From Giardia intestinalis (taxonomy: Eukaryota): DNA of 64,000 nucleotides. The first letter of the stretch is position 1. The number at the start of each line of letters is the position of its first letter. The notes under the pieces are model-generated. The model had not been told where the DNA came from, did no database searches, and was given only the letters and a program-made list of their open reading frames with translations. The DNA lies in the NCBI GenBank assembly GCA_000002435.2, contig CM018790.1; one strand, written 5' to 3'. Positions 37,327 to 63,026 of the stretch are shown in pieces. Both the position numbers and the translations under genes were made by a program.

Positions 37327-40300
37327 CAGGACTCAGTTCGCCTCTGCCAGCCAAGCACCCCAAGTCCTATTTCTTGTCGAGGGATTCACATGGGTCACGT
37401 GTGGGTCCGTCTGGACAGGCGGGGCGAGTGATTAGTGCCATCACTGGCTTCAAGCTCTCCGTTGCTCTGGGAGCTCCTTGAGACCGGCCAGGAAGGAGGC
37501 CTCCTGCCCCTCAGTGCTCTTACACCCAATGTTGACCGTCGAGCATAGCGCTTCGCTAGGTCTGTCGCCTCTGTGACTACCCTGTCGCGTCACTGTCATC
37601 GGCATGGGCAGTGAGTGGAGTATCTCCTTCAGCTCCTGGTGAGCAGGTTCTGTACCACGCAGTATGGGGGCATGCGCAGGGCCCCGAGGGACCGAGTCCA
37701 GGAGTGCAGCGCGTCCCAGCCGGAGGAAGGCCTCGACGCAGCTCCTCGGGACGGGGCACACTTGCCTGGGAGAGGCCGTCTGCTGTTGGGGCTCTCGTTA
37801 TGTCGAGCGAGGCCGCCGTGCCCATCAGCTTGTGTCTCCCTGTGCCATGCGAACACCACCCATGTGCAATCGGTGGAACGCAGTCTGCTCTGTCTCGAGG
37901 AAGGCCAGTGTCTGGGTCTCCAGGGGGCTCGGGACTGCCTTGTGGAGCGCATCATGATCGTCCCCTGATCGTGGTTGTCCTGTCTCGTTCTTGGGAAGAG
38001 GGCAGAACAAAAGTTCTTCTCCCGTCGGAGTCGCTTGGCACTTGAGTTCGAACTTTGGGTTTTGATCTTGGCCAATGCAGGGATGAGGGAGACCTGCTTC
38101 CCCAGAGCGGCGGTGGCTTGCATGGGAAGATCACTCAGATAGCAGGTGACAGCCCCACCCCGGCTAAAAAACTTGAGGCAGCCGTCGCGCCCGCCGCCCC
38201 CAGGACAGAGATTCTGCGTGCATGGCCAGCTGCCCTTGTCAGTTCGGTCTACTGGTCCGGTAGTCTGAGGACCTTCTGCGCCGCTTCTGATGTATGATGC
38301 ATCGCAACTGCTTATAGGGGTAAGCAGCATGAAAAGGCAATTGCATGTGTGGACATTGTACTATGACCGTCTCAGAGGGCCGAAGTCTCCAACTACAGAG
38401 CGCTGCACCGAGCAACACGCCCCACTGCCCTGCGCCGGTGGCTGCCTCCACCACCGTCTTCGTTGCACTTGGGCTGTGCCTGCCCAGCAGACTGAGCAGA
38501 GATTACAGAAGCTTCTCTAATAATGCACACACGCCGCATAAGGTCTGATGATGGAATGGACACCACCTGTCTGAGCTGTCTGCTATTGACGAGAGACAGC
38601 CCTTGGTTGCACTAGAGTGCTTTTGTTTAAGCATAAGGTCTTCGCACCTACTCCCCCATCAGCTATAGCGATAGCTGTATATCCAGAAGGGTCCTGCAGA
38701 GCGTTCCACCGTCTTTCAAGGTAAGGCATGGGCTCCATACCTATAGCTAAAAACAGAAATCCGTGCACCAAGTGTCACGAGTCTAGTATACTGACCGACC
38801 TGAATCGCAGTGCACTTGTCAAGGACCTGTGCACACGTTTGGATGCTCACTGCTAGTGGTAGACGGGCTTGTAAGGAAAATTGCTTCTGGTCGCGCTTGC
38901 CTTATAGTGTTTGATCCTGGGTGGCATGCCTCAGCAAAGGAAGATGCTATTTATATGCATAGAAGGCTATCCATGCACAGTGATTCCTGGAAAGCCGGTT
39001 CGCACGGAGAGGGTAGAGGCCATCAGCAAACCAGTGAGATACACCTGACGCTAGAGAGGCCAGCTACCGGCTCAGATTGCAGTGGTGACACTTGTAGTGC
39101 CCCTCTGACTTCTAAGCATGGAAACGTCACGGGGTCTGTGGGCAAACCGGACGCTCTTTTTGATTTTATACGTTTGTAGCAACGTAGTATTTATTGGGGT
39201 CTGCTTCGTCTGGAGTCGAGGAGGCTCGCTTTCTCTCCACATACAGATTAAGATCGATTGTAGGGGTATACTGTGCAGATCAGTACCAGTCAGTGTGGTC
39301 TCTGTCCACAGGTACCTCACTTGCGTCTTCCCGTGGCAGACATTCACCAACAACACCTCCGGCCTGTGTGGTGTTCTACAGTGTACCTTCACCTTCGACC
39401 AAGGGGCTGGTACACACGTTACGTAATTTAGATTGCTCATCAGTCAGGGTGGTATGGTCCGCTCTTGTTCTCCACTTGCATATCTCGTATAACCTGCTGA
39501 TAGCCTTTCCAGATTAGTATGCAGATGCTTCTATCGGTCCTGTAAGGCATGCGTCATGTAGGTAACCATTACAGGCCAGAGTCCTGTCTGCTAAGGAAAA
39601 GAACCACCAGTTTACCATGTGGACATCCGTTGTGCTCTCCAGTATCTCCTCGCCAGCCGCCATCTAGTTCTCCCTGCCGTTTGGAGCCCGTATGTATATT
39701 GTTACTGACAAGCACTTGGTTTCAATGGGCCCCTGGGACGTTAAGCACTTTACCCTGTGCAGTGGGTATGTTCAATGTGGGAGATACACAATCAGCATTG
39801 ACTTTCTCACTCATTGTTTGTGTAATTATTGTTGCTTCTTAGTCTAATTAGCAACCCAGATCATGGCCTCCAGTGTAGTGGTATTCTACCAACAGACAGC
39901 TGGCAGTGACTGTGGCACGTACTTTCATCAAGACACAGCCACCTGAGCAGGGGTATGAAATGGGTCCTTGTTATTCTACGATTCTGCTAATTCCTCAGAT
40001 AGCAGGGATCAGAGCAGCTTATTGTTAGTATTGACTATCTCCGTGTCTCCATTTATCTTCGTCGCTTGAGATACGCTTGACTCCAAAGACTCGAAAAGGT
40101 GCTATACTGTGCTCAGATCTGCGAGTCTCAATTAAGTAAGGCTACCATCTCGGTGGCTGCGCTGAGGTAGCTACACACCTTGTGGGCTCTGCAAGGTGCA
40201 TTACAGCCCAATGGAACCCTTACCTATCGAATGCAGGCCGCAATGCAGCCTCGCTGGTGCACGATTTCTTAAGATGACTGATCAATCCGCAGAGTCCACC

Positions 40301-41916
40301 CTACTCATGTAGAGCCAGCGATAGATGACGATATCAACCCTGTAGATAATCTACACTGTACATCAGTGGTCCTATAGGTAAGTAAGGGTCAGCCATCCCG
40401 CAGTAATGAGCATTAGCGGTGTCTTTCCCAAGAATAAATGGGCGAGTTGTCAGCAGTCACAACATCCGCTTTCTCAATGAAGACCGCCCTGCCACTGAGG
40501 CCCAGGCCAGTCTCCTATAAGATCCTTGACAAGATTGTATCCAAGATGTATATCTATGGTGCTCCCCGACTCAAGGTGTATGCTGCTGAACCTCCCATTT
40601 CTCGTATCAGCTTATGAATATCGATGTCCCTGCCTCTAGCAGAATTGTATTAGAAATAATATGAGATATGGCGCCTTCAGTCGGGTTGTTCGGATTCCCA
40701 GCTGCACAACGGGGGCCCACTTTCGTATTGTGCATCAGAAAGACATGTCATGCCGTAATGATGCAACCTTTCGTATGGTATAATTCTTGCGTCAAGAGAT
40801 AGGGCACTTGTATCGATCGGCATATCTACCCATGGCCAGTTATAGCTTGGACCAAAGGTCACAAACGAACGCTATCTAACTCCCTTATCAACAGACGGGA
40901 GATCTGACCATCCTTCTGCCTCACACAAAGCCACAAAGGATTCTAGATCAGGATTTCGGCCAGTAGCTGGCAAGTCATTATACTCTCCTGGATTTCTGCT
41001 CCCTCTACTATAGGTATCCACATGTAGGAAGCTCTGAGGGCCTAAAGTCCTACACCAATAGGCTCAGGGTACTGCAAACCCAGGTGTTTTCACTAGTGGT
41101 GGTAGTGATGGTCTCAAGATGATCCAGAAGGGATGACAGGAGTCCTGGTCAATCAACTTAGAAGGTGGCACGGCTTGGTCAGTGATTCTCCTTGTCCAGA
41201 TGCGGGACTGCTTGTCTGCGCCTTCTAAGCTTCACATGGCATCCCGTCATGCGATAGGATATCTTAATAATATTCATTAAAAAAGGCCAGAAATGACACA
41301 CTGTACATCCAACAGACTGCTGCACCTTATTATCTAATCTTTGCCGGTTCACACCTTCCACAAACCCCAGTGGTTGCTGCGATCTTCTCTTAGGATCTCG
41401 TAGGGGTCTTTCATTAAGGGAGGCTCCCCTGTGACGACCAGAGGTCGCAGACATAATCCAAAGGGATGCGAATGCTACGGAGGCGGAGAGAAGGTCATCG
41501 GCGCACGGGGGTCCGCAGGGGCCCGACCCGTCCAGGGAAAGCACAGGGAGCTGGCTTATCAGAGACGCAAAGACGCCAGGAGAAAAGCCAGCAACGAACC
41601 CACGGCACAGTGGAGGCACTCGAGCCGTCCTTTGATTGGCCGCAGGGCAGAGAGGCGGCAAGCGTGTGGAGAGGTCTCACCACTTATTTTTGGATTTTCT
41701 GTTTCCCTGCGTGTTGTGCAGGGAGCATGGGGTTCAGACCCAGGGAGCTCGCGTGGGCTGTATGCAGTAGATGTGCTTAGTATTCGATGAGCTTCTATGC
41801 CCTAAGCAGAGGTATCGTAGAAGACGAATCTCTTTGGATTAATTAGCATAGTGTAGTCAGGTCTTTAGTCTTAAGTATCTTATTCTTACTTATACGACAA
41901 GCTGAGAAGGACCTCA

Positions 41917-43803
41917 ATGTTGCTGGTAGTTTTCTACTTTGTGCTGAGTGCTCTTGCGGGAGCATGTACTGTTGAGGCTAACACACGAGATTGTACAGAG
42001 AATAAGTGCGAAATGGTTGGCGAAACAGAAATCTGTACACAATGCAAGACGGGCGGAAATGTTCCCATTGATGGAGTGTGTAAGGCGGTTGCTGAGGCCG
42101 CCAATAAGTGTACGAAGAGCGATGACAATCCGGTAGGCGCAGGAGATACGACTTGTGGAAAATGCGTAAACGCATACTTCATGTACAAAGGCGGATGTTA
42201 TCTGGCCGGTGCAGCTGGACCGGGTACTGGTACTAAAATGTGCAAGCAGGCTGCTGGTGGCAAGTGTACGCAAGCTGCTGATGCGAAGAACTACTTCATT
42301 CCACCAGCAAATACAGACGATACTCATGATTCTGTCGTTTGGTGCGGTGATGAAATAGGCGTAACACTTAGTAGTACTCAGTATAAGGGTGTTGCTAAGT
42401 GCCTAGTATGTGATGCTCCCGGTGGGGCTGGTGCTGCAACGTGCACAACCTGTGAAGACGGGTACTTTGGTGCTACTTGTAAAAAATGCCATGAAAGTTG
42501 TAGGACATGTGAAGCTGCAGAAGAGAATAAGTGCAAGTCGTGTACAGATGGCTACTTCCTTGGAGCAACCAATGGAGCCGCAGGTAAGTGCCTTAAGTGT
42601 AACTCTAAAACAGAGGAAGGCTGGCACGGAGTTGACAACTGTGCTAAGTGCACGTCATCTAATACGCAAAACACCCCTGCGACATGCACTGAATGCGTTG
42701 CAAATTTCTATCTAAAACCAGCCGCGGGTGCAACTCCTTCTAGTTGCGTCACAGAAACGGGGTGCGGTGACGGATACTTCCCAACTATTGTTGATGAGAT
42801 CAAGAAATGTATCGCTTGCGGTACAGCTGCAAATGGTGGCATAGATGACTGCAAAAAGTGTTCTCTCAAAACAACGTCTGCGAAGGCAGGAATAGAGATC
42901 GTATGCACTGAATGTAATACTAAATGGCTCAGTCCTCTAGGAGACGCATGTTTGGATAGCTGTCCTCCTGGAACACATGCTGATTCTGGCAATATTTGTC
43001 CTTTATGTCATAGCACATGTGCAGAGTGTGATGGCAATGCAGAAGCCACATCGTGCAGAGCATGTTATCCCGGATTTGTGCTGAGTTATGGCAGCGATAA
43101 AGTCAGAGGCACATGTATTCAAGAATGTACCGGCAAATACGCAGAAAATTGTGAAGAAAATATGTGTACGGCTGTCCTTGGAGGCTCCAAGTATTGTAGC
43201 AAGTGTAAGGCCGGATTCGTTCCAATAGATGGTGTCTGTGTATCGACAGCTTCACGAGCAGTAACCGGATGTACGCCAGGAAATGGAGTATGCATTGCAT
43301 GTACAGACTCATACTTCTTACAGTCTGGAGGATGCTATCAGTCGACAGTGTTTCCTGGTAATAAGCTGTGTACACTAGCTAGTAATGGAAAGTGTACAGC
43401 ATGCTCCAACGGGCAAACAGCAGATGGTCAAGGTTCGTGCCCAGCGTGTAATGCCATCTGTGCAACATGTGCGGCAGGAAATATAGACCAATGCCAAACT
43501 TGCTTCCCTGGATACTATAAATCCGGAACTAAGTGCGTAAAATGTAGCATTACTGACAACGGAATAACTGGTGTAGAGAACTGCATAAGCTGTGCCCCTC
43601 CAGCTGGTAATAGTGGTCCTGTCACTTGCTATATGAAGACAGATGACACTAACGATGGTGGTAACGACAACAACGGCGGAAGCACGAACAAGAGCGGGCT
43701 CTCCACAGGGGCCATCGCGGGGATCTCCGTGGCTGTGATTGTTGTTGTAGGTGGTCTCATAGGCTTCTTGTGTTGGTGGTTCATATGTAGAGGGAAGGCG
43801 TAA
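41917..43803 (+). CDS. Variant-specific surface protein (VSP), copy A of an identical inverted pair
   Basis: 628 aa: signal peptide [16 protein letters not shown], dozens of CXXC motifs, GGCY motifs ([18 protein letters not shown]), a transmembrane helix and the CRGKA* tail. AGTAAAC polyA motif at 43811-43817. Confidence 0.9.
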   Translation: [628 protein letters not shown]

Positions 43804-43810
43804 CTTAGGT

Positions 43811-43817
43811 AGTAAAC
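43811..43817 (+). terminator. AGTRAAY polyadenylation signal (agtaaac) of VSP copy A; its mirror for copy B is at 46537-46543 on the minus strand
   Basis: Motif lies 8 nt after the TAA stop. Confidence 0.4.
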
Positions 43818-44322
43818 GCGTTACTTTATGTAACCTATGTAGATGTGCTGCTGGGGCTATCTGAGCGCGGTCCAGAGATCGTGTGGGTAATCATCGCTCC
43901 TTCCTGACCAGTCCAGAGACGATGGCTGGTTGTGAATAATATAACGAGAGAATCCTCTCCAGTGATACCTCCAGAGCCTGGTGCATTCCTCAATCATTTC
44001 GTGGGCGTGTGCTCAGACCGAATGCGTACATCGGTCCTTTAGGGGTTCAGGCCCTCTTGCAGACTCTCTGATCCGCCGGCGCCTCTCCTTGGTCTGCCGC
44101 CTTGGTGGATGAGGCTTGGGTCGCTGTCTTTTTTAGATGCCCCCATCTGTCAGAGGGCTGCCCTCGGGCTCTCTTCTGGCCGCCCCTCGGTGTCCGTCCG
44201 GCTGTGGCCCGGGCAGTGCTTCTACAGTCGCGGTCACTTGGGTATCAGCGGGCCAGCTGGTGGGCGAGGCGGGGTTGGTGAGGCTGGAGGGGACTGGTGG
44301 GGGCTGAGGTGGGCGGTGTTGT

Positions 44323-46031
44323 ATGCGCCCCTGACCTCTTGGTGAGTGGGGTGATCGCAGCTGTTATGACTGGGGGCTGTCCATCTGTGACTCATCCCTC
44401 TGTGTGCTCGTGGTCTGTGAGTGCCTCCACCCAGACAACCCTCAGGAGCCGGAGAGTGGTGCCAGCCTAGCTGTCCTCCCTCCTCGGTGCCTCCCAGTGC
44501 AGACTCACCGGAGGCCACTACCCTGTCAGCCACCCGAAGGAGCCGTGCACGCCGGGACAGAGAGAGTGACCAAGGGGAGTCAAGCAGCCCTGCCATGAGA
44601 GTGCACAGCAACCAGCCTGGACTGTATGGGCTGCTCGAACAGTGGTAGTGGCAGACGACTCCCTCTGACAGCAGCCCTGATGACGGCACTGGCCTGCTCT
44701 TGAGACTGAATGACAGTGAACACAGACGGACATGAGCGCAGGAGGACCATCCACACACGAACAGACTGTGTGGACCCAGAGAGGACTAGGGTCTGCTCAG
44801 ACACACGCTGACTGTGCCCCATACGAGAGTACCAGGCAACCACCCGAGCACCCGAGAGGCAGGTACAGCCACGGGCACTAGAGATCCCCAGCCAGACACA
44901 TTGCCATGCTCATCCACAGGGGCATCAGAGGGCCAGGTGGGGTCACTCTCACAATCAGGGGCCTGATAGGAAGCCAGAGGACCCGAGCAGCACAGCACAG
45001 CAGGCCCAAGGGAGGCACACTCCAGGCAGGTGAGCAGTGGCAGAGCCTTGACAGCTGCCAGCCCCCCATGACACCCAGGCAGGCACCAGACTCCGAAGAC
45101 TCGCTGGCCTCCACCTATGACCCGAGAGGGCAGCAACCAGAGGAGCGAGGAGGCCTTCGGATGACACAAGAGGCCGGCTGTCCAGCGGGCGATGGAGCAC
45201 AGGTGGCCTCTGAGCACCATAAGGCACAGGACTGACCATCAGAGTGATGCCCGGTCACAGAGACGACCACGAGCACCCTCCACCCACTCTGAGGGGCTGT
45301 CGATCATTCACTGCCTCTCATAGCAGACCTCCTTAAGGGCAGTGCAGTGGGTCCCAGCTCATGCAGGAGGGTGCACACCCCTCAGTATAGGACACCCCGA
45401 CTCTCCCCGAGGGGTCATCAGAGCCATGAGAGGTGTCAAGGTCCTGATAGATCACACCGGGAACCCCTCGAATGGGCACAGCAGGTGAGGTATGGGTGAC
45501 CCCAGCGTGCTCCTCTCTGCATGGTAGAGCATCCTGAGACCAAGGGGGTCACCTCTGCCTACGGATAATACACAGCACTCCATGACAAGGACCCACCAGG
45601 AGCAGCACAGCTGACCACGGGGACAGTGCAGTCACCAGTGCCCCACCGTGCCAGTCTTCTGGGCCATCACACTAGAGGCACGAGAGAACCCCATCCCATC
45701 CACCGGCTCATCTATGCCCCTGCTGGCCCGAGGTGAACTAACCTTGTCGAGGCACTGGACAGGGCATGCCAGGGGGCCCAGCAGACCCGCACAGAGCAAC
45801 AGGAGGGGCTGCGATGGCCTGCCTCACCCTTCACGCACCAGCCAGACAGAGCAGCAGTACTGCCTGAGACATGCAGGGGCTAAGGGAGGCGCTCAGTCGG
45901 GGGACACGACACGATCGTCGGTGCCTCTGTCTCGGGAGTGCAACGCAGGCTGGTGATCAGACACAACCACCTTAGCAAACAGAGCGGGGATCACCCACCA
46001 CCGCAATGACCCACCGGACCCAGGGGCGCAT
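44323..46031. other. Unique 1.7 kb spacer at the centre of the inverted repeat; GC-rich and strongly T-poor on the plus strand
   Basis: ORFs in this interval have no mirror partners. Composition is dominated by C, A and G runs (e.g. cacagacggacatgagcgcaggaggaccatccacacacgaacagac). Overlapping junk ORFs lie on both strands. Confidence 0.7.
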
Positions 46032-49000
46032 ACAACACCGCCCACCTCAGCCCCCACCAGTCCCCTCCAGCCTCACCAACCCCGCCTCGCCCACCAGCTG
46101 GCCCGCTGATACCCAAGTGACCGCGACTGTAGAAGCACTGCCCGGGCCACAGCCGGACGGACACCGAGGGGCGGCCAGAAGAGAGCCCGAGGGCAGCCCT
46201 CTGACAGATGGGGGCATCTAAAAAAGACAGCGACCCAAGCCTCATCCACCAAGGCGGCAGACCAAGGAGAGGCGCCGGCGGATCAGAGAGTCTGCAAGAG
46301 GGCCTGAACCCCTAAAGGACCGATGTACGCATTCGGTCTGAGCACACGCCCACGAAATGATTGAGGAATGCACCAGGCTCTGGAGGTATCACTGGAGAGG
46401 ATTCTCTCGTTATATTATTCACAACCAGCCATCGTCTCTGGACTGGTCAGGAAGGAGCGATGATTACCCACACGATCTCTGGACCGCGCTCAGATAGCCC
46501 CAGCAGCACATCTACATAGGTTACATAAAGTAACGCGTTTACTACCTAAGTTACGCCTTCCCTCTACATATGAACCACCAACACAAGAAGCCTATGAGAC
46601 CACCTACAACAACAATCACAGCCACGGAGATCCCCGCGATGGCCCCTGTGGAGAGCCCGCTCTTGTTCGTGCTTCCGCCGTTGTTGTCGTTACCACCATC
46701 GTTAGTGTCATCTGTCTTCATATAGCAAGTGACAGGACCACTATTACCAGCTGGAGGGGCACAGCTTATGCAGTTCTCTACACCAGTTATTCCGTTGTCA
46801 GTAATGCTACATTTTACGCACTTAGTTCCGGATTTATAGTATCCAGGGAAGCAAGTTTGGCATTGGTCTATATTTCCTGCCGCACATGTTGCACAGATGG
46901 CATTACACGCTGGGCACGAACCTTGACCATCTGCTGTTTGCCCGTTGGAGCATGCTGTACACTTTCCATTACTAGCTAGTGTACACAGCTTATTACCAGG
47001 AAACACTGTCGACTGATAGCATCCTCCAGACTGTAAGAAGTATGAGTCTGTACATGCAATGCATACTCCATTTCCTGGCGTACATCCGGTTACTGCTCGT
47101 GAAGCTGTCGATACACAGACACCATCTATTGGAACGAATCCGGCCTTACACTTGCTACAATACTTGGAGCCTCCAAGGACAGCCGTACACATATTTTCTT
47201 CACAATTTTCTGCGTATTTGCCGGTACATTCTTGAATACATGTGCCTCTGACTTTATCGCTGCCATAACTCAGCACAAATCCGGGATAACATGCTCTGCA
47301 CGATGTGGCTTCTGCATTGCCATCACACTCTGCACATGTGCTATGACATAAAGGACAAATATTGCCAGAATCAGCATGTGTTCCAGGAGGACAGCTATCC
47401 AAACATGCGTCTCCTAGAGGACTGAGCCATTTAGTATTACATTCAGTGCATACGATCTCTATTCCTGCCTTCGCAGACGTTGTTTTGAGAGAACACTTTT
47501 TGCAGTCATCTATGCCACCATTTGCAGCTGTACCGCAAGCGATACATTTCTTGATCTCATCAACAATAGTTGGGAAGTATCCGTCACCGCACCCCGTTTC
47601 TGTGACGCAACTAGAAGGAGTTGCACCCGCGGCTGGTTTTAGATAGAAATTTGCAACGCATTCAGTGCATGTCGCAGGGGTGTTTTGCGTATTAGATGAC
47701 GTGCACTTAGCACAGTTGTCAACTCCGTGCCAGCCTTCCTCTGTTTTAGAGTTACACTTAAGGCACTTACCTGCGGCTCCATTGGTTGCTCCAAGGAAGT
47801 AGCCATCTGTACACGACTTGCACTTATTCTCTTCTGCAGCTTCACATGTCCTACAACTTTCATGGCATTTTTTACAAGTAGCACCAAAGTACCCGTCTTC
47901 ACAGGTTGTGCACGTTGCAGCACCAGCCCCACCGGGAGCATCACATACTAGGCACTTAGCAACACCCTTATACTGAGTACTACTAAGTGTTACGCCTATT
48001 TCATCACCGCACCAAACGACAGAATCATGAGTATCGTCTGTATTTGCTGGTGGAATGAAGTAGTTCTTCGCATCAGCAGCTTGCGTACACTTGCCACCAG
48101 CAGCCTGCTTGCACATTTTAGTACCAGTACCCGGTCCAGCTGCACCGGCCAGATAACATCCGCCTTTGTACATGAAGTATGCGTTTACGCATTTTCCACA
48201 AGTCGTATCTCCTGCGCCTACCGGATTGTCATCGCTCTTCGTACACTTATTGGCGGCCTCAGCAACCGCCTTACACACTCCATCAATGGGAACATTTCCG
48301 CCCGTCTTGCATTGTGTACAGATTTCTGTTTCGCCAACCATTTCGCACTTATTCTCTGTACAATCTCGTGTGTTAGCCTCAACAGTACATGCTCCCGCAA
48401 GAGCACTCAGCACAAAGTAGAAAACTACCAGCAACATTGAGGTCCTTCTCAGCTTGTCGTATAAGTAAGAATAAGATACTTAAGACTAAAGACCTGACTA
48501 CACTATGCTAATTAATCCAAAGAGATTCGTCTTCTACGATACCTCTGCTTAGGGCATAGAAGCTCATCGAATACTAAGCACATCTACTGCATACAGCCCA
48601 CGCGAGCTCCCTGGGTCTGAACCCCATGCTCCCTGCACAACACGCAGGGAAACAGAAAATCCAAAAATAAGTGGTGAGACCTCTCCACACGCTTGCCGCC
48701 TCTCTGCCCTGCGGCCAATCAAAGGACGGCTCGAGTGCCTCCACTGTGCCGTGGGTTCGTTGCTGGCTTTTCTCCTGGCGTCTTTGCGTCTCTGATAAGC
48801 CAGCTCCCTGTGCTTTCCCTGGACGGGTCGGGCCCCTGCGGACCCCCGTGCGCCGATGACCTTCTCTCCGCCTCCGTAGCATTCGCATCCCTTTGGATTA
48901 TGTCTGCGACCTCTGGTCGTCACAGGGGAGCCTCCCTTAATGAAAGACCCCTACGAGATCCTAAGAGAAGATCGCAGCAACCACTGGGGTTTGTGGAAGG

Positions 49001-52000
49001 TGTGAACCGGCAAAGATTAGATAATAAGGTGCAGCAGTCTGTTGGATGTACAGTGTGTCATTTCTGGCCTTTTTTAATGAATATTATTAAGATATCCTAT
49101 CGCATGACGGGATGCCATGTGAAGCTTAGAAGGCGCAGACAAGCAGTCCCGCATCTGGACAAGGAGAATCACTGACCAAGCCGTGCCACCTTCTAAGTTG
49201 ATTGACCAGGACTCCTGTCATCCCTTCTGGATCATCTTGAGACCATCACTACCACCACTAGTGAAAACACCTGGGTTTGCAGTACCCTGAGCCTATTGGT
49301 GTAGGACTTTAGGCCCTCAGAGCTTCCTACATGTGGATACCTATAGTAGAGGGAGCAGAAATCCAGGAGAGTATAATGACTTGCCAGCTACTGGCCGAAA
49401 TCCTGATCTAGAATCCTTTGTGGCTTTGTGTGAGGCAGAAGGATGGTCAGATCTCCCGTCTGTTGATAAGGGAGTTAGATAGCGTTCGTTTGTGACCTTT
49501 GGTCCAAGCTATAACTGGCCATGGGTAGATATGCCGATCGATACAAGTGCCCTATCTCTTGACGCAAGAATTATACCATACGAAAGGTTGCATCATTACG
49601 GCATGACATGTCTTTCTGATGCACAATACGAAAGTGGGCCCCCGTTGTGCAGCTGGGAATCCGAACAACCCGACTGAAGGCGCCATATCTCATATTATTT
49701 CTAATACAATTCTGCTAGAGGCAGGGACATCGATATTCATAAGCTGATACGAGAAATGGGAGGTTCAGCAGCATACACCTTGAGTCGGGGAGCACCATAG
49801 ATATACATCTTGGATACAATCTTGTCAAGGATCTTATAGGAGACTGGCCTGGGCCTCAGTGGCAGGGCGGTCTTCATTGAGAAAGCGGATGTTGTGACTG
49901 CTGACAACTCGCCCATTTATTCTTGGGAAAGACACCGCTAATGCTCATTACTGCGGGATGGCTGACCCTTACTTACCTATAGGACCACTGATGTACAGTG
50001 TAGATTATCTACAGGGTTGATATCGTCATCTATCGCTGGCTCTACATGAGTAGGGTGGACTCTGCGGATTGATCAGTCATCTTAAGAAATCGTGCACCAG
50101 CGAGGCTGCATTGCGGCCTGCATTCGATAGGTAAGGGTTCCATTGGGCTGTAATGCACCTTGCAGAGCCCACAAGGTGTGTAGCTACCTCAGCGCAGCCA
50201 CCGAGATGGTAGCCTTACTTAATTGAGACTCGCAGATCTGAGCACAGTATAGCACCTTTTCGAGTCTTTGGAGTCAAGCGTATCTCAAGCGACGAAGATA
50301 AATGGAGACACGGAGATAGTCAATACTAACAATAAGCTGCTCTGATCCCTGCTATCTGAGGAATTAGCAGAATCGTAGAATAACAAGGACCCATTTCATA
50401 CCCCTGCTCAGGTGGCTGTGTCTTGATGAAAGTACGTGCCACAGTCACTGCCAGCTGTCTGTTGGTAGAATACCACTACACTGGAGGCCATGATCTGGGT
50501 TGCTAATTAGACTAAGAAGCAACAATAATTACACAAACAATGAGTGAGAAAGTCAATGCTGATTGTGTATCTCCCACATTGAACATACCCACTGCACAGG
50601 GTAAAGTGCTTAACGTCCCAGGGGCCCATTGAAACCAAGTGCTTGTCAGTAACAATATACATACGGGCTCCAAACGGCAGGGAGAACTAGATGGCGGCTG
50701 GCGAGGAGATACTGGAGAGCACAACGGATGTCCACATGGTAAACTGGTGGTTCTTTTCCTTAGCAGACAGGACTCTGGCCTGTAATGGTTACCTACATGA
50801 CGCATGCCTTACAGGACCGATAGAAGCATCTGCATACTAATCTGGAAAGGCTATCAGCAGGTTATACGAGATATGCAAGTGGAGAACAAGAGCGGACCAT
50901 ACCACCCTGACTGATGAGCAATCTAAATTACGTAACGTGTGTACCAGCCCCTTGGTCGAAGGTGAAGGTACACTGTAGAACACCACACAGGCCGGAGGTG
51001 TTGTTGGTGAATGTCTGCCACGGGAAGACGCAAGTGAGGTACCTGTGGACAGAGACCACACTGACTGGTACTGATCTGCACAGTATACCCCTACAATCGA
51101 TCTTAATCTGTATGTGGAGAGAAAGCGAGCCTCCTCGACTCCAGACGAAGCAGACCCCAATAAATACTACGTTGCTACAAACGTATAAAATCAAAAAGAG
51201 CGTCCGGTTTGCCCACAGACCCCGTGACGTTTCCATGCTTAGAAGTCAGAGGGGCACTACAAGTGTCACCACTGCAATCTGAGCCGGTAGCTGGCCTCTC
51301 TAGCGTCAGGTGTATCTCACTGGTTTGCTGATGGCCTCTACCCTCTCCGTGCGAACCGGCTTTCCAGGAATCACTGTGCATGGATAGCCTTCTATGCATA
51401 TAAATAGCATCTTCCTTTGCTGAGGCATGCCACCCAGGATCAAACACTATAAGGCAAGCGCGACCAGAAGCAATTTTCCTTACAAGCCCGTCTACCACTA
51501 GCAGTGAGCATCCAAACGTGTGCACAGGTCCTTGACAAGTGCACTGCGATTCAGGTCGGTCAGTATACTAGACTCGTGACACTTGGTGCACGGATTTCTG
51601 TTTTTAGCTATAGGTATGGAGCCCATGCCTTACCTTGAAAGACGGTGGAACGCTCTGCAGGACCCTTCTGGATATACAGCTATCGCTATAGCTGATGGGG
51701 GAGTAGGTGCGAAGACCTTATGCTTAAACAAAAGCACTCTAGTGCAACCAAGGGCTGTCTCTCGTCAATAGCAGACAGCTCAGACAGGTGGTGTCCATTC
51801 CATCATCAGACCTTATGCGGCGTGTGTGCATTATTAGAGAAGCTTCTGTAATCTCTGCTCAGTCTGCTGGGCAGGCACAGCCCAAGTGCAACGAAGACGG
51901 TGGTGGAGGCAGCCACCGGCGCAGGGCAGTGGGGCGTGTTGCTCGGTGCAGCGCTCTGTAGTTGGAGACTTCGGCCCTCTGAGACGGTCATAGTACAATG

Positions 52001-53027
52001 TCCACACATGCAATTGCCTTTTCATGCTGCTTACCCCTATAAGCAGTTGCGATGCATCATACATCAGAAGCGGCGCAGAAGGTCCTCAGACTACCGGACC
52101 AGTAGACCGAACTGACAAGGGCAGCTGGCCATGCACGCAGAATCTCTGTCCTGGGGGCGGCGGGCGCGACGGCTGCCTCAAGTTTTTTAGCCGGGGTGGG
52201 GCTGTCACCTGCTATCTGAGTGATCTTCCCATGCAAGCTACCGCCGCTCTGGGGAAGCAGGTCTCCCTCATCCCTGCATTGGCCAAGATCAAAACCCAAA
52301 GTTCGAACTCAAGTGCCAAGCGACTCCGACGGGAGAAGAACTTTTGTTCTGCCCTCTTCCCAAGAACGAGACAGGACAACCACGATCAGGGGACGATCAT
52401 GATGCGCTCCACAAGGCAGTCCCGAGCCCCCTGGAGACCCAGACACTGGCCTTCCTCGAGACAGAGCAGACTGCGTTCCACCGATTGCACATGGGTGGTG
52501 TTCGCATGGCACAGGGAGACACAAGCTGATGGGTACAGCGGTCTTGCTCGACATAACGAGAGCCCCAACAGCAGACGGCCTCTCCCAGGCAAGTGTGCCC
52601 CGTCCCGAGGAGCTGCGTCGAGGCCTTCCTCCGGCTGGGACGCGCTGCACTCCTGGACTCGGTCCCTCGGGGCCCTGCGCATGCCCCCATACTGCGTGGT
52701 ACAGAACCTGCTCACCAGGAGCTGAAGGAGATACTCCACTCACTGCCCATGCCGATGACAGTGACGCGACAGGGTAGTCACAGAGGCGACAGACCTAGCG
52801 AAGCGCTATGCTCGACGGTCAACATTGGGTGTAAGAGCACTGAGGGGCAGGAGGCCTCCTTCCTGGCCGGTCTCAAGGAGCTCCCAGAGCAACGGAGAGC
52901 TTGAAGCCAGTGATGGCACTAATCACTCGCCCCGCCTGTCCAGACGGACCCACACGTGACCCATGTGAATCCCTCGACAAGAAATAGGACTTGGGGTGCT
53001 TGGCTGGCAGAGGCGGACTGATCCTAA
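46032..53027. repeat. Right arm (~7.0 kb) of the inverted repeat, reverse complement of 37327-44322 at about 99.9% identity
   Basis: See left arm. The only differences seen are a roughly 20-bp hypervariable patch (left 37806-37823 / right 52531-52548) and two single substitutions near left 38105-38125. Confidence 0.92.
46551..48437 (-). CDS. Variant-specific surface protein (VSP), copy B, convergent with copy A
   Basis: Translated protein is identical to copy A, 628/628 aa. Confidence 0.9.
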   Translation of the reverse strand: [628 protein letters not shown]

Positions 53028-58035: not shown

Positions 58036-60576
58036 TTAAAGCTTCTTGCCATCTTTTTCTCCAAATAAACCAAGATTATATATGCATGTGTACTCTCCGC
58101 CGTTATTTGTGAATTGAACACGTACCTGTATGAGGTCGTGATTCTCCTGCAGTTGGAAGGCTTGCTGCTCTGGGCCATCGACGTCGAAAGTGAAGCTCCC
58201 CAGCTGAATCTCCTTTCCAGTGGTTGTGCGCCCGATGAACGTTAGATCACGTGGGACAGTAGTCCGGCCGGTAGAGAGCTTCGGCGCAGCTGGATGTGAG
58301 ATAGTGCCGTAGTACAACGTAACTGGGTCCTTAAAACGCAATACAACATGCCCGTTTTTCTTCGTCGGCCAACATGCTCCTGGTGACATGTTCTCGTTGA
58401 ACATGAGCCGTACACGCTCGTTCCCGGAGATGAGAGTTTTGAGGCTCTCTGCGATGTTCGTAATGTCATCAGATTTGCCTGCAATTCTTGTCCCAAAAGA
58501 CTGTTTCGTAAAATCCGTGTACTGTAACCGCAGATCGTCAACTACGCCTTGTGAGACAGTACTTGTGCTTTCGGAAGAGTAGCTCGTTTGCTTCAATAGA
58601 GCCTTCTTTATTATTCCTGCTAGTCCCATCTTCAGATGATCCACGCGCTCGTTAGCCTCCTGAATCATCTTGTTTTCTGAGGCATTTATCCTCTCCTGAA
58701 TAGCAAGAGTAACGTTCTGTGCCTGCTGTGTAATGTGTTGGGAAAGCTTATACCGTGCCTCTTCAAGGTCAGCTAATGTCAACAGTGAGGACTGAGAATC
58801 ACCATGGCTGCCAGTGCTACCAAAGCCAGAGCCCACCCGGTCTGAAAGCTCTCCAAGTACAACGATAATTCTATCTATGGCGTGCTGCATAGAGCTCAGG
58901 CTTTCAGATGCAAACATTACTGGGGCCGTACCATTGACAGATACCTCTGCATTGACAGCGGACTTTGCAGCAAGGTCAATAAGCACAGTGGATAAGCTCT
59001 CTGTCTGTGTACGGATGCTAGCTAGAGAGTCGCTAATTACCTGGTTTGTTATTGCGGCAGCATCCTTCAGCTGTGTCTGGATGTCAAGGAGGATCGATTG
59101 CTGCAAGGCCTGTAACTCTTTAGTGATGCTCTCGTTGCGATATGACGTCTCTAACCTACGTGACAGGCCCTCTATCATCGTAAATAGAGCAGTGAAGTCG
59201 GCAGATCCTGCGGTTACCACTGCATCTGTCGCATCAGATATCTTCCCAACAGCTGCTTTGATTTTCTCCGAGGCTTTCTTTGCTGGCGTTGAGGTCGCAT
59301 TGAAACTGTTGTTCCTGAGGAGATCCTTCATCAGATCGATGGTAGCAGACTGCGCATTCAGCATCTCCTTCTCAAACTTAGCAATAGCATCAGAGAGTGC
59401 AGAAGTGCGCTCCTTGGTCGCTGAAGTCACTTCGTCCCTAACTATCTTGGCTAGATCTTTTAGTTGGTTGGTCGTAATACTCTGATCAGTGGCCCGAGCC
59501 GTATGCTTATCAATTATCTCTGCAATCTTGAACTCCAACTTTTGATGCTGATCCGAAAGTTTGGACGCCACCTGAGTTGCAATGTTATGAATTTCTTTAT
59601 TATCTAGTGTAAATGCGCGAGCATTGCCCCACTCTTTGAGCAGGACCTTGTTGTTTAACTCAAGGAGAGATTGTATTTCTTTCAGTGACGGGCCTGTGCA
59701 GGACACGCCTGCAACACCGTCACCTGTATGTATAGGAACCAGTGGAGCACCAGCGCCAACGATGCCTAGCCCAGCACATCCCGTCCAGAGGCGCATCAGC
59801 AGGTAGCTGAAGATGAAGAGCACCATGAGAGCAAGTAATCCACATGCGCTAGCGTAAACATACTCAGCGCAACCCCATGCTTTCTTGTAGGCGTAGAGCA
59901 TACCGGGTTCGCCAGCTGTAACCACTCTCGTACTCGTTGATAGCCTCGAAGGTGGACGCGGTCTTCTCTTGACACGCTGCTTGACCATGACATACTCATC
60001 TGTGTACTCATCTTCTTGGGACGGTTGGATAGCTGGGGACGGCTTCTTGATAGGAGTGGCCGACTGTCTGAGTGGGGTTGGAGTGGCTGGCTTAGGCACA
60101 TCCTTGGGAGATTTCCGTGCAGGTGGAGGGCTTGGCGTGGGGCTAGATTCTGGAGGAGTTGACGTGCTGGATGTTTCGGAAAGGGAAGCCTGCTGGGGTT
60201 GACTAGAAGAAGAATCCTTATCCTCTGATGTTATTTCGTATTTGGGAGGCTCCTGGACACGGGATCTCTGAATCGGTGCAACTTGTAGAGCTGTCAAAGA
60301 CTTCTGCAATTTAAGCGCATCACTCTGATCCATGAGGGTGTCAATCTTCTTGGGAGGGCGTGCATCGACCTCAGCGGCCATAAGATACTCTTGAAGCCGG
60401 AGGGTCCCCTCGTCTTGATTTCTAAGATTCTGGGTTATCCGCTCAGACTTACCGGATGTTAGCTCCGCCCTAAACCCGTCGCTTGTCTTCCTAAGGACTT
60501 CCTTTGTGTAGGCCTCATCCTCGCGCGTGGGATTCATACGCACAAGGGCTCCCGAAGAGCGAGTGCGGGGCGGCAT
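58036..60576 (-). CDS. SUN-domain (Sad1/UNC-84) inner-nuclear-membrane protein: Pro/Ser-rich N-terminal region, transmembrane helix, coiled coils, C-terminal SUN domain
   Basis: C-terminal ACWPTKKNGHVVLRF...LYYGTISHP...TVPRDLTFIG...IQLGSFTFDVDGPEQQAFQLQ...VRVQFTNNGGEYTCIYNLGLFGE matches the SUN-domain consensus (CW...lEH...aPkdF...LG.F.Y...Q.F...N.G...TClYrfrVHG). Transmembrane segment AEYVYASACGLLALMVLFIFSYLLM. The ORF-track start is GTG; ATG at 60576 is preceded by a very AT-rich tract (aaaaataaaaataaaaATG). Confidence 0.8.
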   Translation of the reverse strand: MPPRTRSSGALVRMNPTREDEAYTKEVLRKTSDGFRAELTSGKSERITQNLRNQDEGTLRLQEYLMAAEVDARPPKKIDTLMDQSDALKLQKSLTALQVAPIQRSRVQEPPKYEITSEDKDSSSSQPQQASLSETSSTSTPPESSPTPSPPPARKSPKDVPKPATPTPLRQSATPIKKPSPAIQPSQEDEYTDEYVMVKQRVKRRPRPPSRLSTSTRVVTAGEPGMLYAYKKAWGCAEYVYASACGLLALMVLFIFSYLLMRLWTGCAGLGIVGAGAPLVPIHTGDGVAGVSCTGPSLKEIQSLLELNNKVLLKEWGNARAFTLDNKEIHNIATQVASKLSDQHQKLEFKIAEIIDKHTARATDQSITTNQLKDLAKIVRDEVTSATKERTSALSDAIAKFEKEMLNAQSATIDLMKDLLRNNSFNATSTPAKKASEKIKAAVGKISDATDAVVTAGSADFTALFTMIEGLSRRLETSYRNESITKELQALQQSILLDIQTQLKDAAAITNQVISDSLASIRTQTESLSTVLIDLAAKSAVNAEVSVNGTAPVMFASESLSSMQHAIDRIIVVLGELSDRVGSGFGSTGSHGDSQSSLLTLADLEEARYKLSQHITQQAQNVTLAIQERINASENKMIQEANERVDHLKMGLAGIIKKALLKQTSYSSESTSTVSQGVVDDLRLQYTDFTKQSFGTRIAGKSDDITNIAESLKTLISGNERVRLMFNENMSPGACWPTKKNGHVVLRFKDPVTLYYGTISHPAAPKLSTGRTTVPRDLTFIGRTTTGKEIQLGSFTFDVDGPEQQAFQLQENHDLIQVRVQFTNNGGEYTCIYNLGLFGEKDGKKL

Positions 60577-60627
60577 TTTTATTTTTATTTTTAGCTTTGG
60601 CTTTGGCTTTAAACAGAAAGCATACAC

Positions 60628-62307
60628 TTAGTAGGATTTGCTACTGCAAGCTCGCCGTTTCGAACATTCGCATGTACACCGCGAAAGAGAATTGCATCCT
60701 GTTCCACAGCTACAGTGGTTGATAGCGTTTTGTTCTAACCTGCGATAGATATCCATTTGGTTAATCAGTAGCTTGCTTTTCTGTGCCAGATATGCTCTCT
60801 CTGTCTTTAGAATAGCTTCTTGAGACGCTAAAGCCTCTGCCTTTGTCCTCAAAACAGCCATATCAAGAGCGGACGCAGTGATAAACCGCTTAGATTCGTG
60901 CTTGAGACTATTCAATTCGGCCTCCAGTAGGTGAGCTCTATCAGCTGCTCGCCTGATCATTTGAAGTTCATCTGCATCAATTGTCACCGTCTTCTGTGCA
61001 GTGGTTGGCCCGGCCCAATTATTATTTCTGGCCACAAGCGATACCTTGTTAACAGTGCTAAGTATTTTACGAGTCCAACGATCTCGTCCAGCACTCTGAA
61101 ACACGAATCCGATGACGCATGTACAGACCCTCCCTGTAAACGTATCCTTTAGATCCAAGAGAAAAGGACATTTCAAGAGGGGAAGTTCTCTATTGCATAG
61201 AGCTGCGAATGCTGCGGAGATCTGTGTCATTATGCTTTCGTTGTTTGCGGATGGATGTATTATGGAAGAGGGCACCTCTACAGCGCTTCGCTCTGATTGG
61301 ACTCCATGACAACCCAAGACTTGGATGTCTCCTAGCCTCTCTGCTCTGCTACACTTTCCTTCCTTGATCCTATGCGCCAACGTCGGGCCACAGGATTGGG
61401 TGATTACAGATTTTCCACTGCTTCCAGATGGAGAAAGATGGTTGATGGATGTTGTCTCTATAAACTGCTGAGAGCCTACCCCTGGAGTGGTTCTTGGAAA
61501 GTGACCCCTTCCCGGAATAGCTTCCTCAAGCACTGGTATGGCAGTGGACCCAGAAGCTCCGCCGACAAAGGGAATTATGCCCAATTTCAACGTGGATGTC
61601 ACTATAAAGGATCCAGATTCGTCTGAAATGGTTATATTGAAGGTAGAGATAGTGGGCATGGTTCGACCTACGTCTATGAGCAGGCTGCAATATGTATTCA
61701 GCAGAGCATCAGGGGTTATATATTGTTGGGGCATGAGGCACACGACACTGTTGTTCTCACGATAGCCAAGTACTTGGCATGATAAGGTGAAGATTGCACC
61801 AGGACTTCTGGCCTTGAGCCTATGCAGTAAGCGAGCAATAAAGCACTGCTCAAGGCTGCTCATGCTGCAGAAGAAGAAGGAAATAGGTTCCGGCAGGGGG
61901 CCGGAAAGGTGCCCCACGTCGGTACCAGCAAACGCAAGAATATGTAGATCCTCTCCGTGGCATAGAAGATCCAGATACCAGTCCAGTACCTCCCCGTAAA
62001 GCCAATCGTTGGTTTCGTCCGGTCCCACAATGGCTTGACAGCTTAATAGGGATCTTCCCTCCCCAAAGCTTATGGGGCCCGCTTCCCTAGCTGCTCTGCC
62101 CCTTCCTCCTCCTCCATGATATGACAGTATCGAGGCGGAGCTCGGGCGTGTAACTCCTTGAGCAATAAACGGAATCGTCAATTGTGAAGTAGACTCCTTT
62201 CGGACTTCATAAAGAGCGGCATGCTTAGGGTTAAAGAAGCAACTGCGGGTAGCTTCTGGGACAGGGATAATGCGGATGTATCCTGAGATTTTGGGCCTTT
62301 GAGACAT
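60628..62307 (-). CDS. Hypothetical protein, about 560 aa, with a C-terminal coiled coil and Cys-rich tail (HCSCGTGCNSLSRCTCECSKRRACSS)
   Basis: The ORF-track start at 62364 is TTG. The first ATG is 62307 (MSQRPKISGY...). No recognised domain. Confidence 0.55.
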   Translation of the reverse strand: MSQRPKISGYIRIIPVPEATRSCFFNPKHAALYEVRKESTSQLTIPFIAQGVTRPSSASILSYHGGGGRGRAAREAGPISFGEGRSLLSCQAIVGPDETNDWLYGEVLDWYLDLLCHGEDLHILAFAGTDVGHLSGPLPEPISFFFCSMSSLEQCFIARLLHRLKARSPGAIFTLSCQVLGYRENNSVVCLMPQQYITPDALLNTYCSLLIDVGRTMPTISTFNITISDESGSFIVTSTLKLGIIPFVGGASGSTAIPVLEEAIPGRGHFPRTTPGVGSQQFIETTSINHLSPSGSSGKSVITQSCGPTLAHRIKEGKCSRAERLGDIQVLGCHGVQSERSAVEVPSSIIHPSANNESIMTQISAAFAALCNRELPLLKCPFLLDLKDTFTGRVCTCVIGFVFQSAGRDRWTRKILSTVNKVSLVARNNNWAGPTTAQKTVTIDADELQMIRRAADRAHLLEAELNSLKHESKRFITASALDMAVLRTKAEALASQEAILKTERAYLAQKSKLLINQMDIYRRLEQNAINHCSCGTGCNSLSRCTCECSKRRACSSKSY

Positions 62308-62327
62308 CAGTTTTGGCCAGTAAAAAA
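62308..62327. promoter_or_regulatory. 20-bp divergent promoter (cagttttggccagtaaaaaa) between the start codons of the 60628-62307 gene (minus) and HscB (plus)
   Basis: Both flanking ATGs (62305-62307 on the minus strand, 62328-62330 on the plus strand) are the first ATGs of long ORFs. The A-tract abuts the plus-strand ATG. Confidence 0.45.
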
Positions 62328-63002
62328 ATGGCTCTACCAACCTTATTCTCAGCAAATTCGTCAACCATCCTAGGTCGTATTGAGCGTTACCTTAAACATG
62401 CGTGCTGGAAGTGTGGAACCAAGCAGCCCGTGACTATTCTCTGTAGCGGCTGTGGAGCTCTTCAGCCCATCTCTCGGCCAACCAACTACTTCAAGCTTAT
62501 GGGCATTTCAGAGACATATGACATAGATCTGAAGAAGCTCAAACAGCGATACAATATGCTGCAGGCAAGAATACACCCAGATGTTATTGGCAAAGAGGTT
62601 AGGACACCTAACGCGCCGCCAGGGCTCCTCCAACTGGCTGAGAGCCTGTCATCGGAGGTGAACCATGCACATGACGTTCTCAAAGATGACATGCGGCGAG
62701 CGGAGTACCTGGCGTCTCTGTACAATGTCTCAGCGTCGGCGGCCTCCCCGGCCCTCTTGATTGACCAGATGGTTCTCCGAGACCAGATAGCCTCTTTCCA
62801 TCATAAGAAAAATGCTAAGAAACTATCTGAAATGCGCCACGCGCTGACCAAACGCTTTTCTGATTGCTCGGAGCTCTTCGGAAAGGCGCTAGCAGAAAAA
62901 GATTCGAACCAAATGGCGAGTTTACTATGTGAAATGAGATTCCTGACATCTACCTTAGATGAACTCAAGGGCCGTATGAACACCTTGGACATAGAAGAAT
63001 AG
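62328..63002 (+). CDS. HSCB: Fe-S cluster co-chaperone HscB/Jac1 (J-type co-chaperone of the mitosomal ISC pathway) with an N-terminal tetracysteine zinc finger
   Basis: CWKCGTKQPVTILCSGCGALQ zinc finger (compare eukaryotic HSCB CWxCG...CxxC). A J-domain-like segment follows (NYFKLMGISETYDIDLKKLKQRYNMLQARIHPD), then the HscB C-terminal helical-domain signature MRRAEYLASLY. The ORF-track start at 62313 is TTG; ATG at 62328. Confidence 0.75.
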   Translation: MALPTLFSANSSTILGRIERYLKHACWKCGTKQPVTILCSGCGALQPISRPTNYFKLMGISETYDIDLKKLKQRYNMLQARIHPDVIGKEVRTPNAPPGLLQLAESLSSEVNHAHDVLKDDMRRAEYLASLYNVSASAASPALLIDQMVLRDQIASFHHKKNAKKLSEMRHALTKRFSDCSELFGKALAEKDSNQMASLLCEMRFLTSTLDELKGRMNTLDIEE

Positions 63003-63026
63003 GCAGCATGCGATCTATCTAGCAAT

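Follow-up and report, generated by a model that had tools for sequence, protein, structure and literature searches.

A conserved 20-nt spacer between the divergent Giardia intestinalis genes for Jac1 and a predicted kinesin-fold pseudo-motor is a probable shared core promoter

Transcription initiation in Giardia is poorly understood, and the systems closest to the locus described here are the AT-rich initiator promoters and bidirectional promoters of this organism. Giardia 5′ UTRs measure 1–14 nt, and translation proceeds without scanning (PMC3610916). By TSS-seq, an AT-rich 11-mer was found around start sites, often ending in the ATG, with AAAATAAAAAT and ATTTTAAAATG as frequent variants; the same work described cases of bidirectional initiation between adjacent genes in Giardia, and 38.8% of its transcription regions lay upstream of an ATG by over 100 nt (PMC3792122). 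According to Teodorovic et al. 2007, Giardia has bidirectional promoters, its AT-rich promoter elements are interchangeable and work in either orientation, and transcript levels of neighboring loci are uncorrelated in SAGE data (PMC1885649). Characterized Giardia promoters have been quoted as 50–60 bp (PMC12209930). A-richness around start codons is general across the genus, and intergenic regions have a median length of 81 bp for G. intestinalis and of 37 bp for G. muris (PMC7641422).

Here, we analyzed a 64,000-nt stretch of G. intestinalis contig CM018790.1 (assembly GCA_000002435.2), referred to as the window, and focused on two divergent genes and the DNA between their start codons:

62308–62327, unstranded: head-to-head spacer, read directly from the window; predicted common core promoter of the two divergent genes, with their 5′ UTRs
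62328–63002, plus strand: Jac1/HscB (GL50803_17030, XP_001705548.1), 224 aa, mitosomal J-type co-chaperone for Fe-S cluster assembly
60628–62307, minus strand: GL50803_0061271 (XP_037901679.1), predicted kinesin-fold pseudo-motor protein of 559 aa, assigned to no Pfam family

Read directly from the window, the minus-strand ATG is the CAT at 62305–62307, which opens ORF 60628–62307, the plus-strand ATG at 62328 opens ORF 62328–63002, and the 20 nt between them (62308–62327) are cagttttggccagtaaaaaa. The translations of both ORFs agree with those in a preliminary description of this DNA, including the Cys-rich tail HCSCGTGCNSLSRCTCECSKRRAC of the minus-strand product. The plus-strand protein is identical to Jac1 of G. 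intestinalis WB C6 and the minus-strand protein to GL50803_0061271 of the same strain, which is labeled hypothetical; given these exact matches, the window is of strain WB and the public reference annotation has the same two ATGs. The 20-bp gap that had been claimed between the divergent first ATGs is thus borne out by direct reading and by the annotated proteins.

To place the spacer in an evolutionary context, the orthologous locus was compared between WB, P15 and four further lineages of the G. intestinalis complex (six lineages in total). The head-to-head arrangement is the same in all six, with a spacer of 20 nt and identical sequence in WB and P15, and of 19 nt in the other four. Across the six lineages, 14 of the 20 spacer columns are invariant, among them every position of A6 and most of TTTT, as compared with 15–17% of third codon positions in HscB and 23% in the first 60 codons of its partner. 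The binomial probability of at least 14 invariant columns in 20 is 1e-5 even at p = 0.23 (1e-5 or lower). Pairwise differences amount to 0–25% in the spacer versus 45–55% at HscB third positions. Within codons 2–20, a single one of the 19 synonymous sites is invariant in each gene (~5%); because these adjacent sites are almost free to vary, sequence-specific non-coding constraint is confined to the 19–20 nt themselves. A coding extension is excluded by the 1-nt indel, and the spacer is therefore non-coding. Together, these data demonstrate that the spacer is conserved beyond chance and that purifying selection acts on a non-coding element. The confinement of the constraint is also consistent with the idea, put forward in the preliminary description, that the interval is a minimal bidirectional promoter.

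The spacer at the other end of Jac1 provides a contrast to this conserved 5′ interval:

63003–63026, unstranded: tail-to-tail spacer 3′ of Jac1, 24 nt

This interval measures 24 nt in WB and P15, and ~65–70 nt of unrelated sequence in the other lineages, such that neither its length nor its sequence is conserved among them. The gene convergent with Jac1 encodes 1364 aa in P15 and here extends past the end of the window. With only 24 nt between its stop codon and that of Jac1, the 3′ UTRs must overlap neighboring coding sequence.

The consensus of the head-to-head spacer on the plus strand is CAT-nAr-yTTT-r-GCy-AG(T)-AAAAAA-ATG, in which two opposed A-tracts flank a GC-rich core of 6–7 nt:

62321–62327, plus strand: TAAAAAA tract, predicted AT-rich initiator and start-site region of Jac1; A6 invariant in six lineages
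62311–62314, minus strand: TTTT (minus-strand AAAA, ccaaaactgATG), predicted initiator of the kinesin-like gene; three of its four positions invariant

A conserved AT-rich initiator-like element is therefore present within ~14 nt of each ATG, on both strands, the minus-strand element being weak. TAAAAAA resembles the published Giardia start-site consensus variants AAAATAAAAAT and ATTTTAAAATG (PMC3792122), and the predicted Jac1 5′ UTR is ~6 nt or less. The minus-strand AAAA lies about 4–8 nt upstream of the kinesin-like ATG, in the context ccAAAActg; it is short (A3–4) and matches the published initiator consensus weakly. An A-tract is also found just upstream of the orthologous kinesin-like ATG in G. 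muris and in two Giardia-like lineages (L010 and L011).

Within the core, the GGCC at 62315–62318 reads AGCT in two lineages (L002 and L008); these two substitutions, G to A and C to T, together preserve the palindrome and may reflect chance or one shared event. E2F-like (TTTGGCGC) or Myb-like sites, considered as candidates in the spacer, were dropped because of this AGCT variant.

On this basis, we think it probable that the 20 nt serve as a divergent core promoter, conserved and non-coding, of the kind usual in Giardia. The gene identities, the start codons, the conservation of the spacer and the absence of the pairing from other Giardia are shown here; the start-site positions and the promoter activity we infer. 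Each gene would most likely be transcribed from its own A-tract, and the resulting 5′ UTRs would comprise a few nucleotides, which would fit the non-scanning translation of Giardia. The predicted start regions lie ~8–16 nt apart, so that the two initiation complexes would have to share overlapping DNA, and any further promoter determinants would sit in the coding sequence of the neighboring gene. Neither gene identifier was found in the supplements of the TSS-seq, strand-specific RNA-seq and time-course RNA-seq papers, and a full-text literature search for GL50803_61271 returned no match.

The alternative that best withstands the evidence, although we regard it as unlikely, is that the divergent transcripts overlap, with one or both mRNAs starting within the coding sequence of the neighbor; the 20 nt would then mainly be a conserved 5′ UTR or translation-initiation context, and the promoters would be embedded in coding DNA. 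Since characterized Giardia promoters are given as 50–60 bp (PMC12209930), 20 nt may be less than a whole promoter, and compositional or structural determinants may reside inside the neighboring coding sequences. [quoted passage not shown] However, the synonymous sites of the first 20 codons are without extra constraint in either gene, and out-of-frame ATGs occur within 60 nt upstream of Jac1, inside the coding sequence of its partner. Such ATGs would be harmful in a longer leader, because published Giardia UTRs are 1–14 nt long and are not scanned (PMC3610916).

The identity of the plus-strand gene is firmly anchored. In its product, the Pfam HSCB_C family (PF07743) matches residues 140–214 (profile positions 2–74 of 74) with 43.6 bits against a cut-off of 22.1 (E = 3.9e-11). 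The DnaJ family matches residues 53–127 (E = 4.9e-6), its 27.0 bits falling just under the gathering cut-off of 27.8. Among PDB entries, human HscB matches best (3bvo, 5.8e-13), followed by a bacterial HscB homologue (4it5, 2.9e-11), E. coli HscB (1fpo, 1.1e-9) and yeast Jac1 (3uo2, 5e-5). Two short motifs were located:

62574–62582, plus strand: HPD tripeptide of the J-domain, residues 83–85, within the DnaJ match and invariant in all Giardia orthologues
62403–62453, plus strand: tetracysteine motif CWKC-x9-CSGC, Jac1 codons 26–42, aligned to human HscB

The CWKC...CSGC segment aligns with RCWNCG...FCPQC of human HscB 3bvo, and C26, W27, C29, C39 and C42 are unchanged in every Giardia orthologue, also in the G. 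muris protein, which is 44% identical overall. The motif is thus, as judged from alignment, a eukaryotic-type N-terminal tetracysteine motif with putative zinc-binding function. The preliminary description had named this gene HscB/Jac1 with a CWxC...CxxC zinc finger, had expected it to act in mitosomes, and had proposed an HMM check with PF07743 and DnaJ. Both parts of the identification are upheld, the first by the above-threshold HSCB_C match, the HPD tripeptide and the best PDB match to human HscB, and the second by the alignment and the invariant cysteines; of the two HMM searches, HSCB_C passes and DnaJ falls marginally short. The mitosomal location had already been demonstrated by tagged expression of GL50803_17030, in a study in which the protein was undetected by mass spectrometry and its short N-terminal leader was not predicted by TargetP as a targeting signal (Jedelsky et al. 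2011, PMC3044749 Table 1). An interactome paper likewise lists Jac1 among mitosomal proteins (PMC5142787). The HscB assignment, being annotated and experimentally localized, is therefore not new. Giardia Jac1 has in common with human HSCB (3bvo), E. coli HscB (1fpo) and yeast Jac1 (3uo2) a J-domain with HPD and an HSCB_C helical domain, and shares the N-terminal tetracysteine motif with the human protein; its J-domain differs from that of human HscB by a 6-residue insertion after HPD.

The kinesin-fold nature of the minus-strand partner, which the preliminary description missed, emerged from profile and structure comparisons. The protein is organized as follows:

61003–62307, minus strand: kinesin motor-like domain, residues 1 to ~435, without Walker A, switch I and switch II
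60721–60975, minus strand: predicted coiled-coil stalk, residues 445–529 (AlphaFold2 helices 445–476 and 480–529)
60646–60717, minus strand: Cys-rich tail HCxCGxGCx5CxCxCx5C, residues 531–554, with low model confidence and no Pfam match

Pfam returned no family for the WB protein, its homologues or the isolated Cys tail, and the Kinesin family PF00225 gave no match at E values up to 1 in the WB protein and five distant homologues. A word-based search retrieved only orthologues of the G. intestinalis complex (73–88% identity). Exhaustive profile searching added five more distant members, namely G. muris GMRT_14374, Spironucleus salmonicida SS50377_25473, a Hexamita inflata protein and the proteins of the two Giardia-like lineages L010 and L011, which are sequencing-run assemblies; all named members of the family are labeled hypothetical. 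When the profile of the ten-sequence family was compared with PDB sequences, kinesin motor domains accounted for 24 of the top 25 matches. The best of these was kinesin-5 (E = 4.3e-6), matched in two colinear stretches that correspond to the strand leading into the P-loop and to helices alpha4 to alpha6. In the region of residues 445–529, leucine-zipper and coiled-coil proteins of the PDB gave weak matches.

An AlphaFold2 model built with five close orthologues only was unusable (pLDDT 35), whereas the ten-sequence alignment, with the distant homologues added, yielded a pLDDT of 66.9 and a core of 80–94. In a Foldseek search against the PDB, the top 50 matches of this model were all kinesin motor domains (E = 5e-13 to 3e-11; identity 8–13%), with a target-normalized TM of 0.42–0.72 that was at least 0.56 for isolated motor-domain chains. 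Large disordered insertions are found at residues 251–308 and 327–351.

None of the ten family members contains the motifs G....GK[ST], SSRSH or D..G.E. At the Walker A equivalent, located by the HMMER alignment of the P-loop, the sequence reads GTDVGHL, a segment that the family does not conserve, and the equivalents of switch I and switch II read GRTMPT and IIPFVGG. An invariant Pro would occupy the position of the switch II Asp, an equivalence derived from the strand order of the model. The PYRxSKLT segment reads PLLKCPFL, its basic residues being replaced. With fold and sequence homology present and the catalytic motifs missing, we conclude from sequence profiles and the structural model that the minus gene would encode a kinesin-fold pseudo-motor. 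Giardia has a genuine kinesin-5 (PMC4161512), and GL50803_0061271 is therefore a separate protein.

The proposed architecture has counterparts elsewhere. Catalytically inactive kinesin-like proteins include the motor-homology domains of Vik1/Cik1, kinesin-11/KIF26 and Costal2. Like these, GL50803_0061271 would combine an N-terminal motor fold with a following coiled coil and lacks nucleotide-binding motifs. Unlike these, it belongs to a separate, diplomonad-restricted family whose best sequence matches are to kinesin-5 and whose structural matches show 8–13% identity, and it differs further by its disordered insertions, by PLLKCPFL in place of PYRxSKLT and by a Cys-rich tail specific to G. intestinalis. 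In this tail, H531, C532, C534, C538, C544, C546, C548 and C554 do not vary among five G. intestinalis lineages. The homologues of G. muris, Spironucleus and Hexamita lack the tail, and P0041 has a motif that resembles it in part. The suggestion that the tail could bind metal is plausible from its sequence. What is new here is a diplomonad-wide family, labeled hypothetical and overlooked by Pfam, of predicted kinesin-fold proteins without any ATPase motif, and a useful by-product is the re-annotation of GL50803_0061271 and of its G. muris, Spironucleus and Hexamita homologues.

We next considered whether the two genes form more than a positional pair. On its other side, the kinesin-like gene has a neighbor with a deeper history:

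58036–60576, minus strand: SUN-domain protein gene, 846 aa (XP_037901678.1, exact match), tandem neighbor downstream of the kinesin-like gene
58036–62307 of the window, 4001–8622 of L012 (G. muris), 2625–8853 of L010 and 590–5967 of L011: conserved gene order

The SUN gene carries a Pfam Sad1_UNC match (E = 4.6e-15). The order kinesin-like, SUN, AMPK-beta is common to G. intestinalis and G. muris, and the adjacency of the kinesin-like and SUN genes recurs in L010 and L011. This adjacency was looked for in Spironucleus and Hexamita and not found, and a deep linkage to the SUN gene was therefore rejected. Tentatively, the conserved SUN synteny within Giardia would be compatible with the kinesin-like protein acting as a link between nucleus and cytoskeleton. 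Short repeats make up the 51-nt tandem spacer that separates the kinesin-like stop codon from the SUN ATG (60577–60627), reading tttta ttttta ttttt agctttggctttggcttt on the plus strand; on the minus strand, AAAAATAAAAATAAAA directly abuts the SUN ATG.

Pairing with Jac1 is of narrower distribution. In G. muris, Jac1 lies head to head with an unrelated 1209-aa gene, and the kinesin-like orthologue maps to a different chromosome, flanked by a CDP-OH_P_transf gene and the SUN gene. The idea that the 1209-aa neighbor is a diverged orthologue of the partner, which would make the pair ancestral, was rejected (BLASTP E above 3). L010 and L011 are also without the pairing. Among the Giardia compared, Jac1 thus adjoins the kinesin-like gene only in G. 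intestinalis, and therefore moved beside it in that lineage.

These observations bear on a second alternative, namely that the genes are a functionally coupled pair in which a shared bidirectional promoter co-expresses Jac1 with its Cys-tailed partner, for example as an Fe-S or metal client. The retention of the spacer and of the head-to-head arrangement in all six G. intestinalis lineages would agree with such coupling, as would the conservation of the Cys-rich tail. We nevertheless consider it highly improbable, in view of the different partner of Jac1 in G. muris, the two further Giardia-like lineages that lack the pairing, and the G. muris, Spironucleus and Hexamita homologues that lack the tail. 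Moreover, start sites so close together would be likelier to compete than to cooperate, and the SAGE comparison shows neighboring loci to be uncorrelated in transcript levels (PMC1885649). The earlier statement that the two genes are probably co-regulated consequently finds no support in the G. intestinalis-only pairing or in these SAGE data. In the reading that we prefer, a divergent core promoter, the gene pairing would have arisen incidentally, through compaction of the genome and a rearrangement in the G. intestinalis lineage, and would form no functional unit.

The annotated start codons, on which the 20-nt distance depends, are supported by sequence comparison on both sides of the spacer. 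From codon 2 onwards, both genes show amino-acid conservation and a three-base substitution pattern. The next in-frame Met of HscB is M58, beyond the conserved zinc finger, and that of the kinesin-like partner is M149, well within the kinesin-like domain. We therefore regard both ATGs as supported true starts. In the annotation of strain DHA2 (P0004 and P0008), both genes are N-terminally extended, to 229 aa and 577 aa, which would create an overlap of the two genes. The corresponding codons in WB are TTG, and in four lineages the 1-nt spacer indel would put any N-terminal extension out of frame; the longer starts were rejected on these grounds and look like gene-caller artefacts. In the run assembly DRR668197 (L005, 2981–5348), HscB is called with 322 aa and the partner with 447 aa. 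The HscB call extends upstream across the spacer, which is intact at 19 nt, into the antisense strand of the partner, which suggests either that the ORF was called too long or that the partner is misassembled.

That one of the ORFs is no real gene, or starts elsewhere, and that the 20-nt spacing is meaningless is scarcely credible: the partner, judging from its newer-series XP_0379 accession, was missing from the 2007 RefSeq protein set and the DHA2 starts are longer, but purifying selection acts on both ORFs from codon 2, homologues of the partner are found across diplomonads and its kinesin-fold core is confidently modeled, the DHA2 extensions start at TTG and are frameshifted by the indel, and the next in-frame ATGs would cost HscB its zinc finger and the partner part of its kinesin-like domain.

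A spacer of this length is in itself no exception. In the first-ATG ORF map of the window, the head-to-head gaps measure 127, 72, 354, 2476, 2476, 72, 383 and 20 nt, the 20-nt gap being the shortest within the window. The window also contains a perfect inverted repeat of 7,001 nt (100% complementary; 37333–44333 and 46021–53021), whose arms lie 1,687 nt apart. Mirrored ORFs of 233 aa and 122 aa accompany the VSP gene found in each arm (628 aa; Pfam VSP, E = 1.8e-91), and the center of the repeat at 44–46 kb is GC-rich (0.62). At the G. muris loci that we retrieved, the head-to-head spacers measure 15, 16, 17, 18, 23 and 40 nt, that of Jac1 itself being 16 nt:

7985–8000, 10610–10627, 13121–13135 and 16419–16441 of L001, and 8623–8639 of L012: short ATG-to-ATG spacers of G. 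muris

Several of the 15–23 nt spacers in G. muris contain one A/T tract only, suggesting that one element can suffice for both directions. Short head-to-head spacers are thus a known general property of the genus, of which the present one is typical and not new. Its value lies in being a clean, conserved natural example of minimal non-coding DNA between two Giardia coding genes, and the contrast between 14 of 20 fixed columns and free synonymous sites makes it a convenient minimal template for the study of transcription initiation in this organism.

A stronger, two-part proposition, that the 19–20-nt spacer is the entire sequence-specific promoter of both genes and that the minus-strand gene founds a family of dead kinesin-fold proteins, is one that we put forward tentatively and hold to be somewhat doubtful. 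If true, two opposed A-tract initiators would share one platform of ~20 bp, on which initiation complexes would necessarily compete, and the spacer would rank with the smallest bidirectional promoters at which RNA polymerase II transcribes two coding mRNAs.

Compared with the described systems, the locus resembles the AT-rich initiator and bidirectional promoters of Giardia (PMC1885649; TSS-seq, PMC3792122) in having an A/T-rich tract by each ATG, very short implied 5′ UTRs, two opposed predicted initiation regions between divergent genes and no TATA box. It shares its short length with spacers elsewhere in the genus (15–23 nt in G. muris). It differs from the described bidirectional promoters of Giardia in that both directions would here give coding mRNAs, rather than one giving a sterile antisense transcript, and from the characterized 50–60-bp promoters in that the spacer, a predicted bidirectional promoter, comprises 20 nt.
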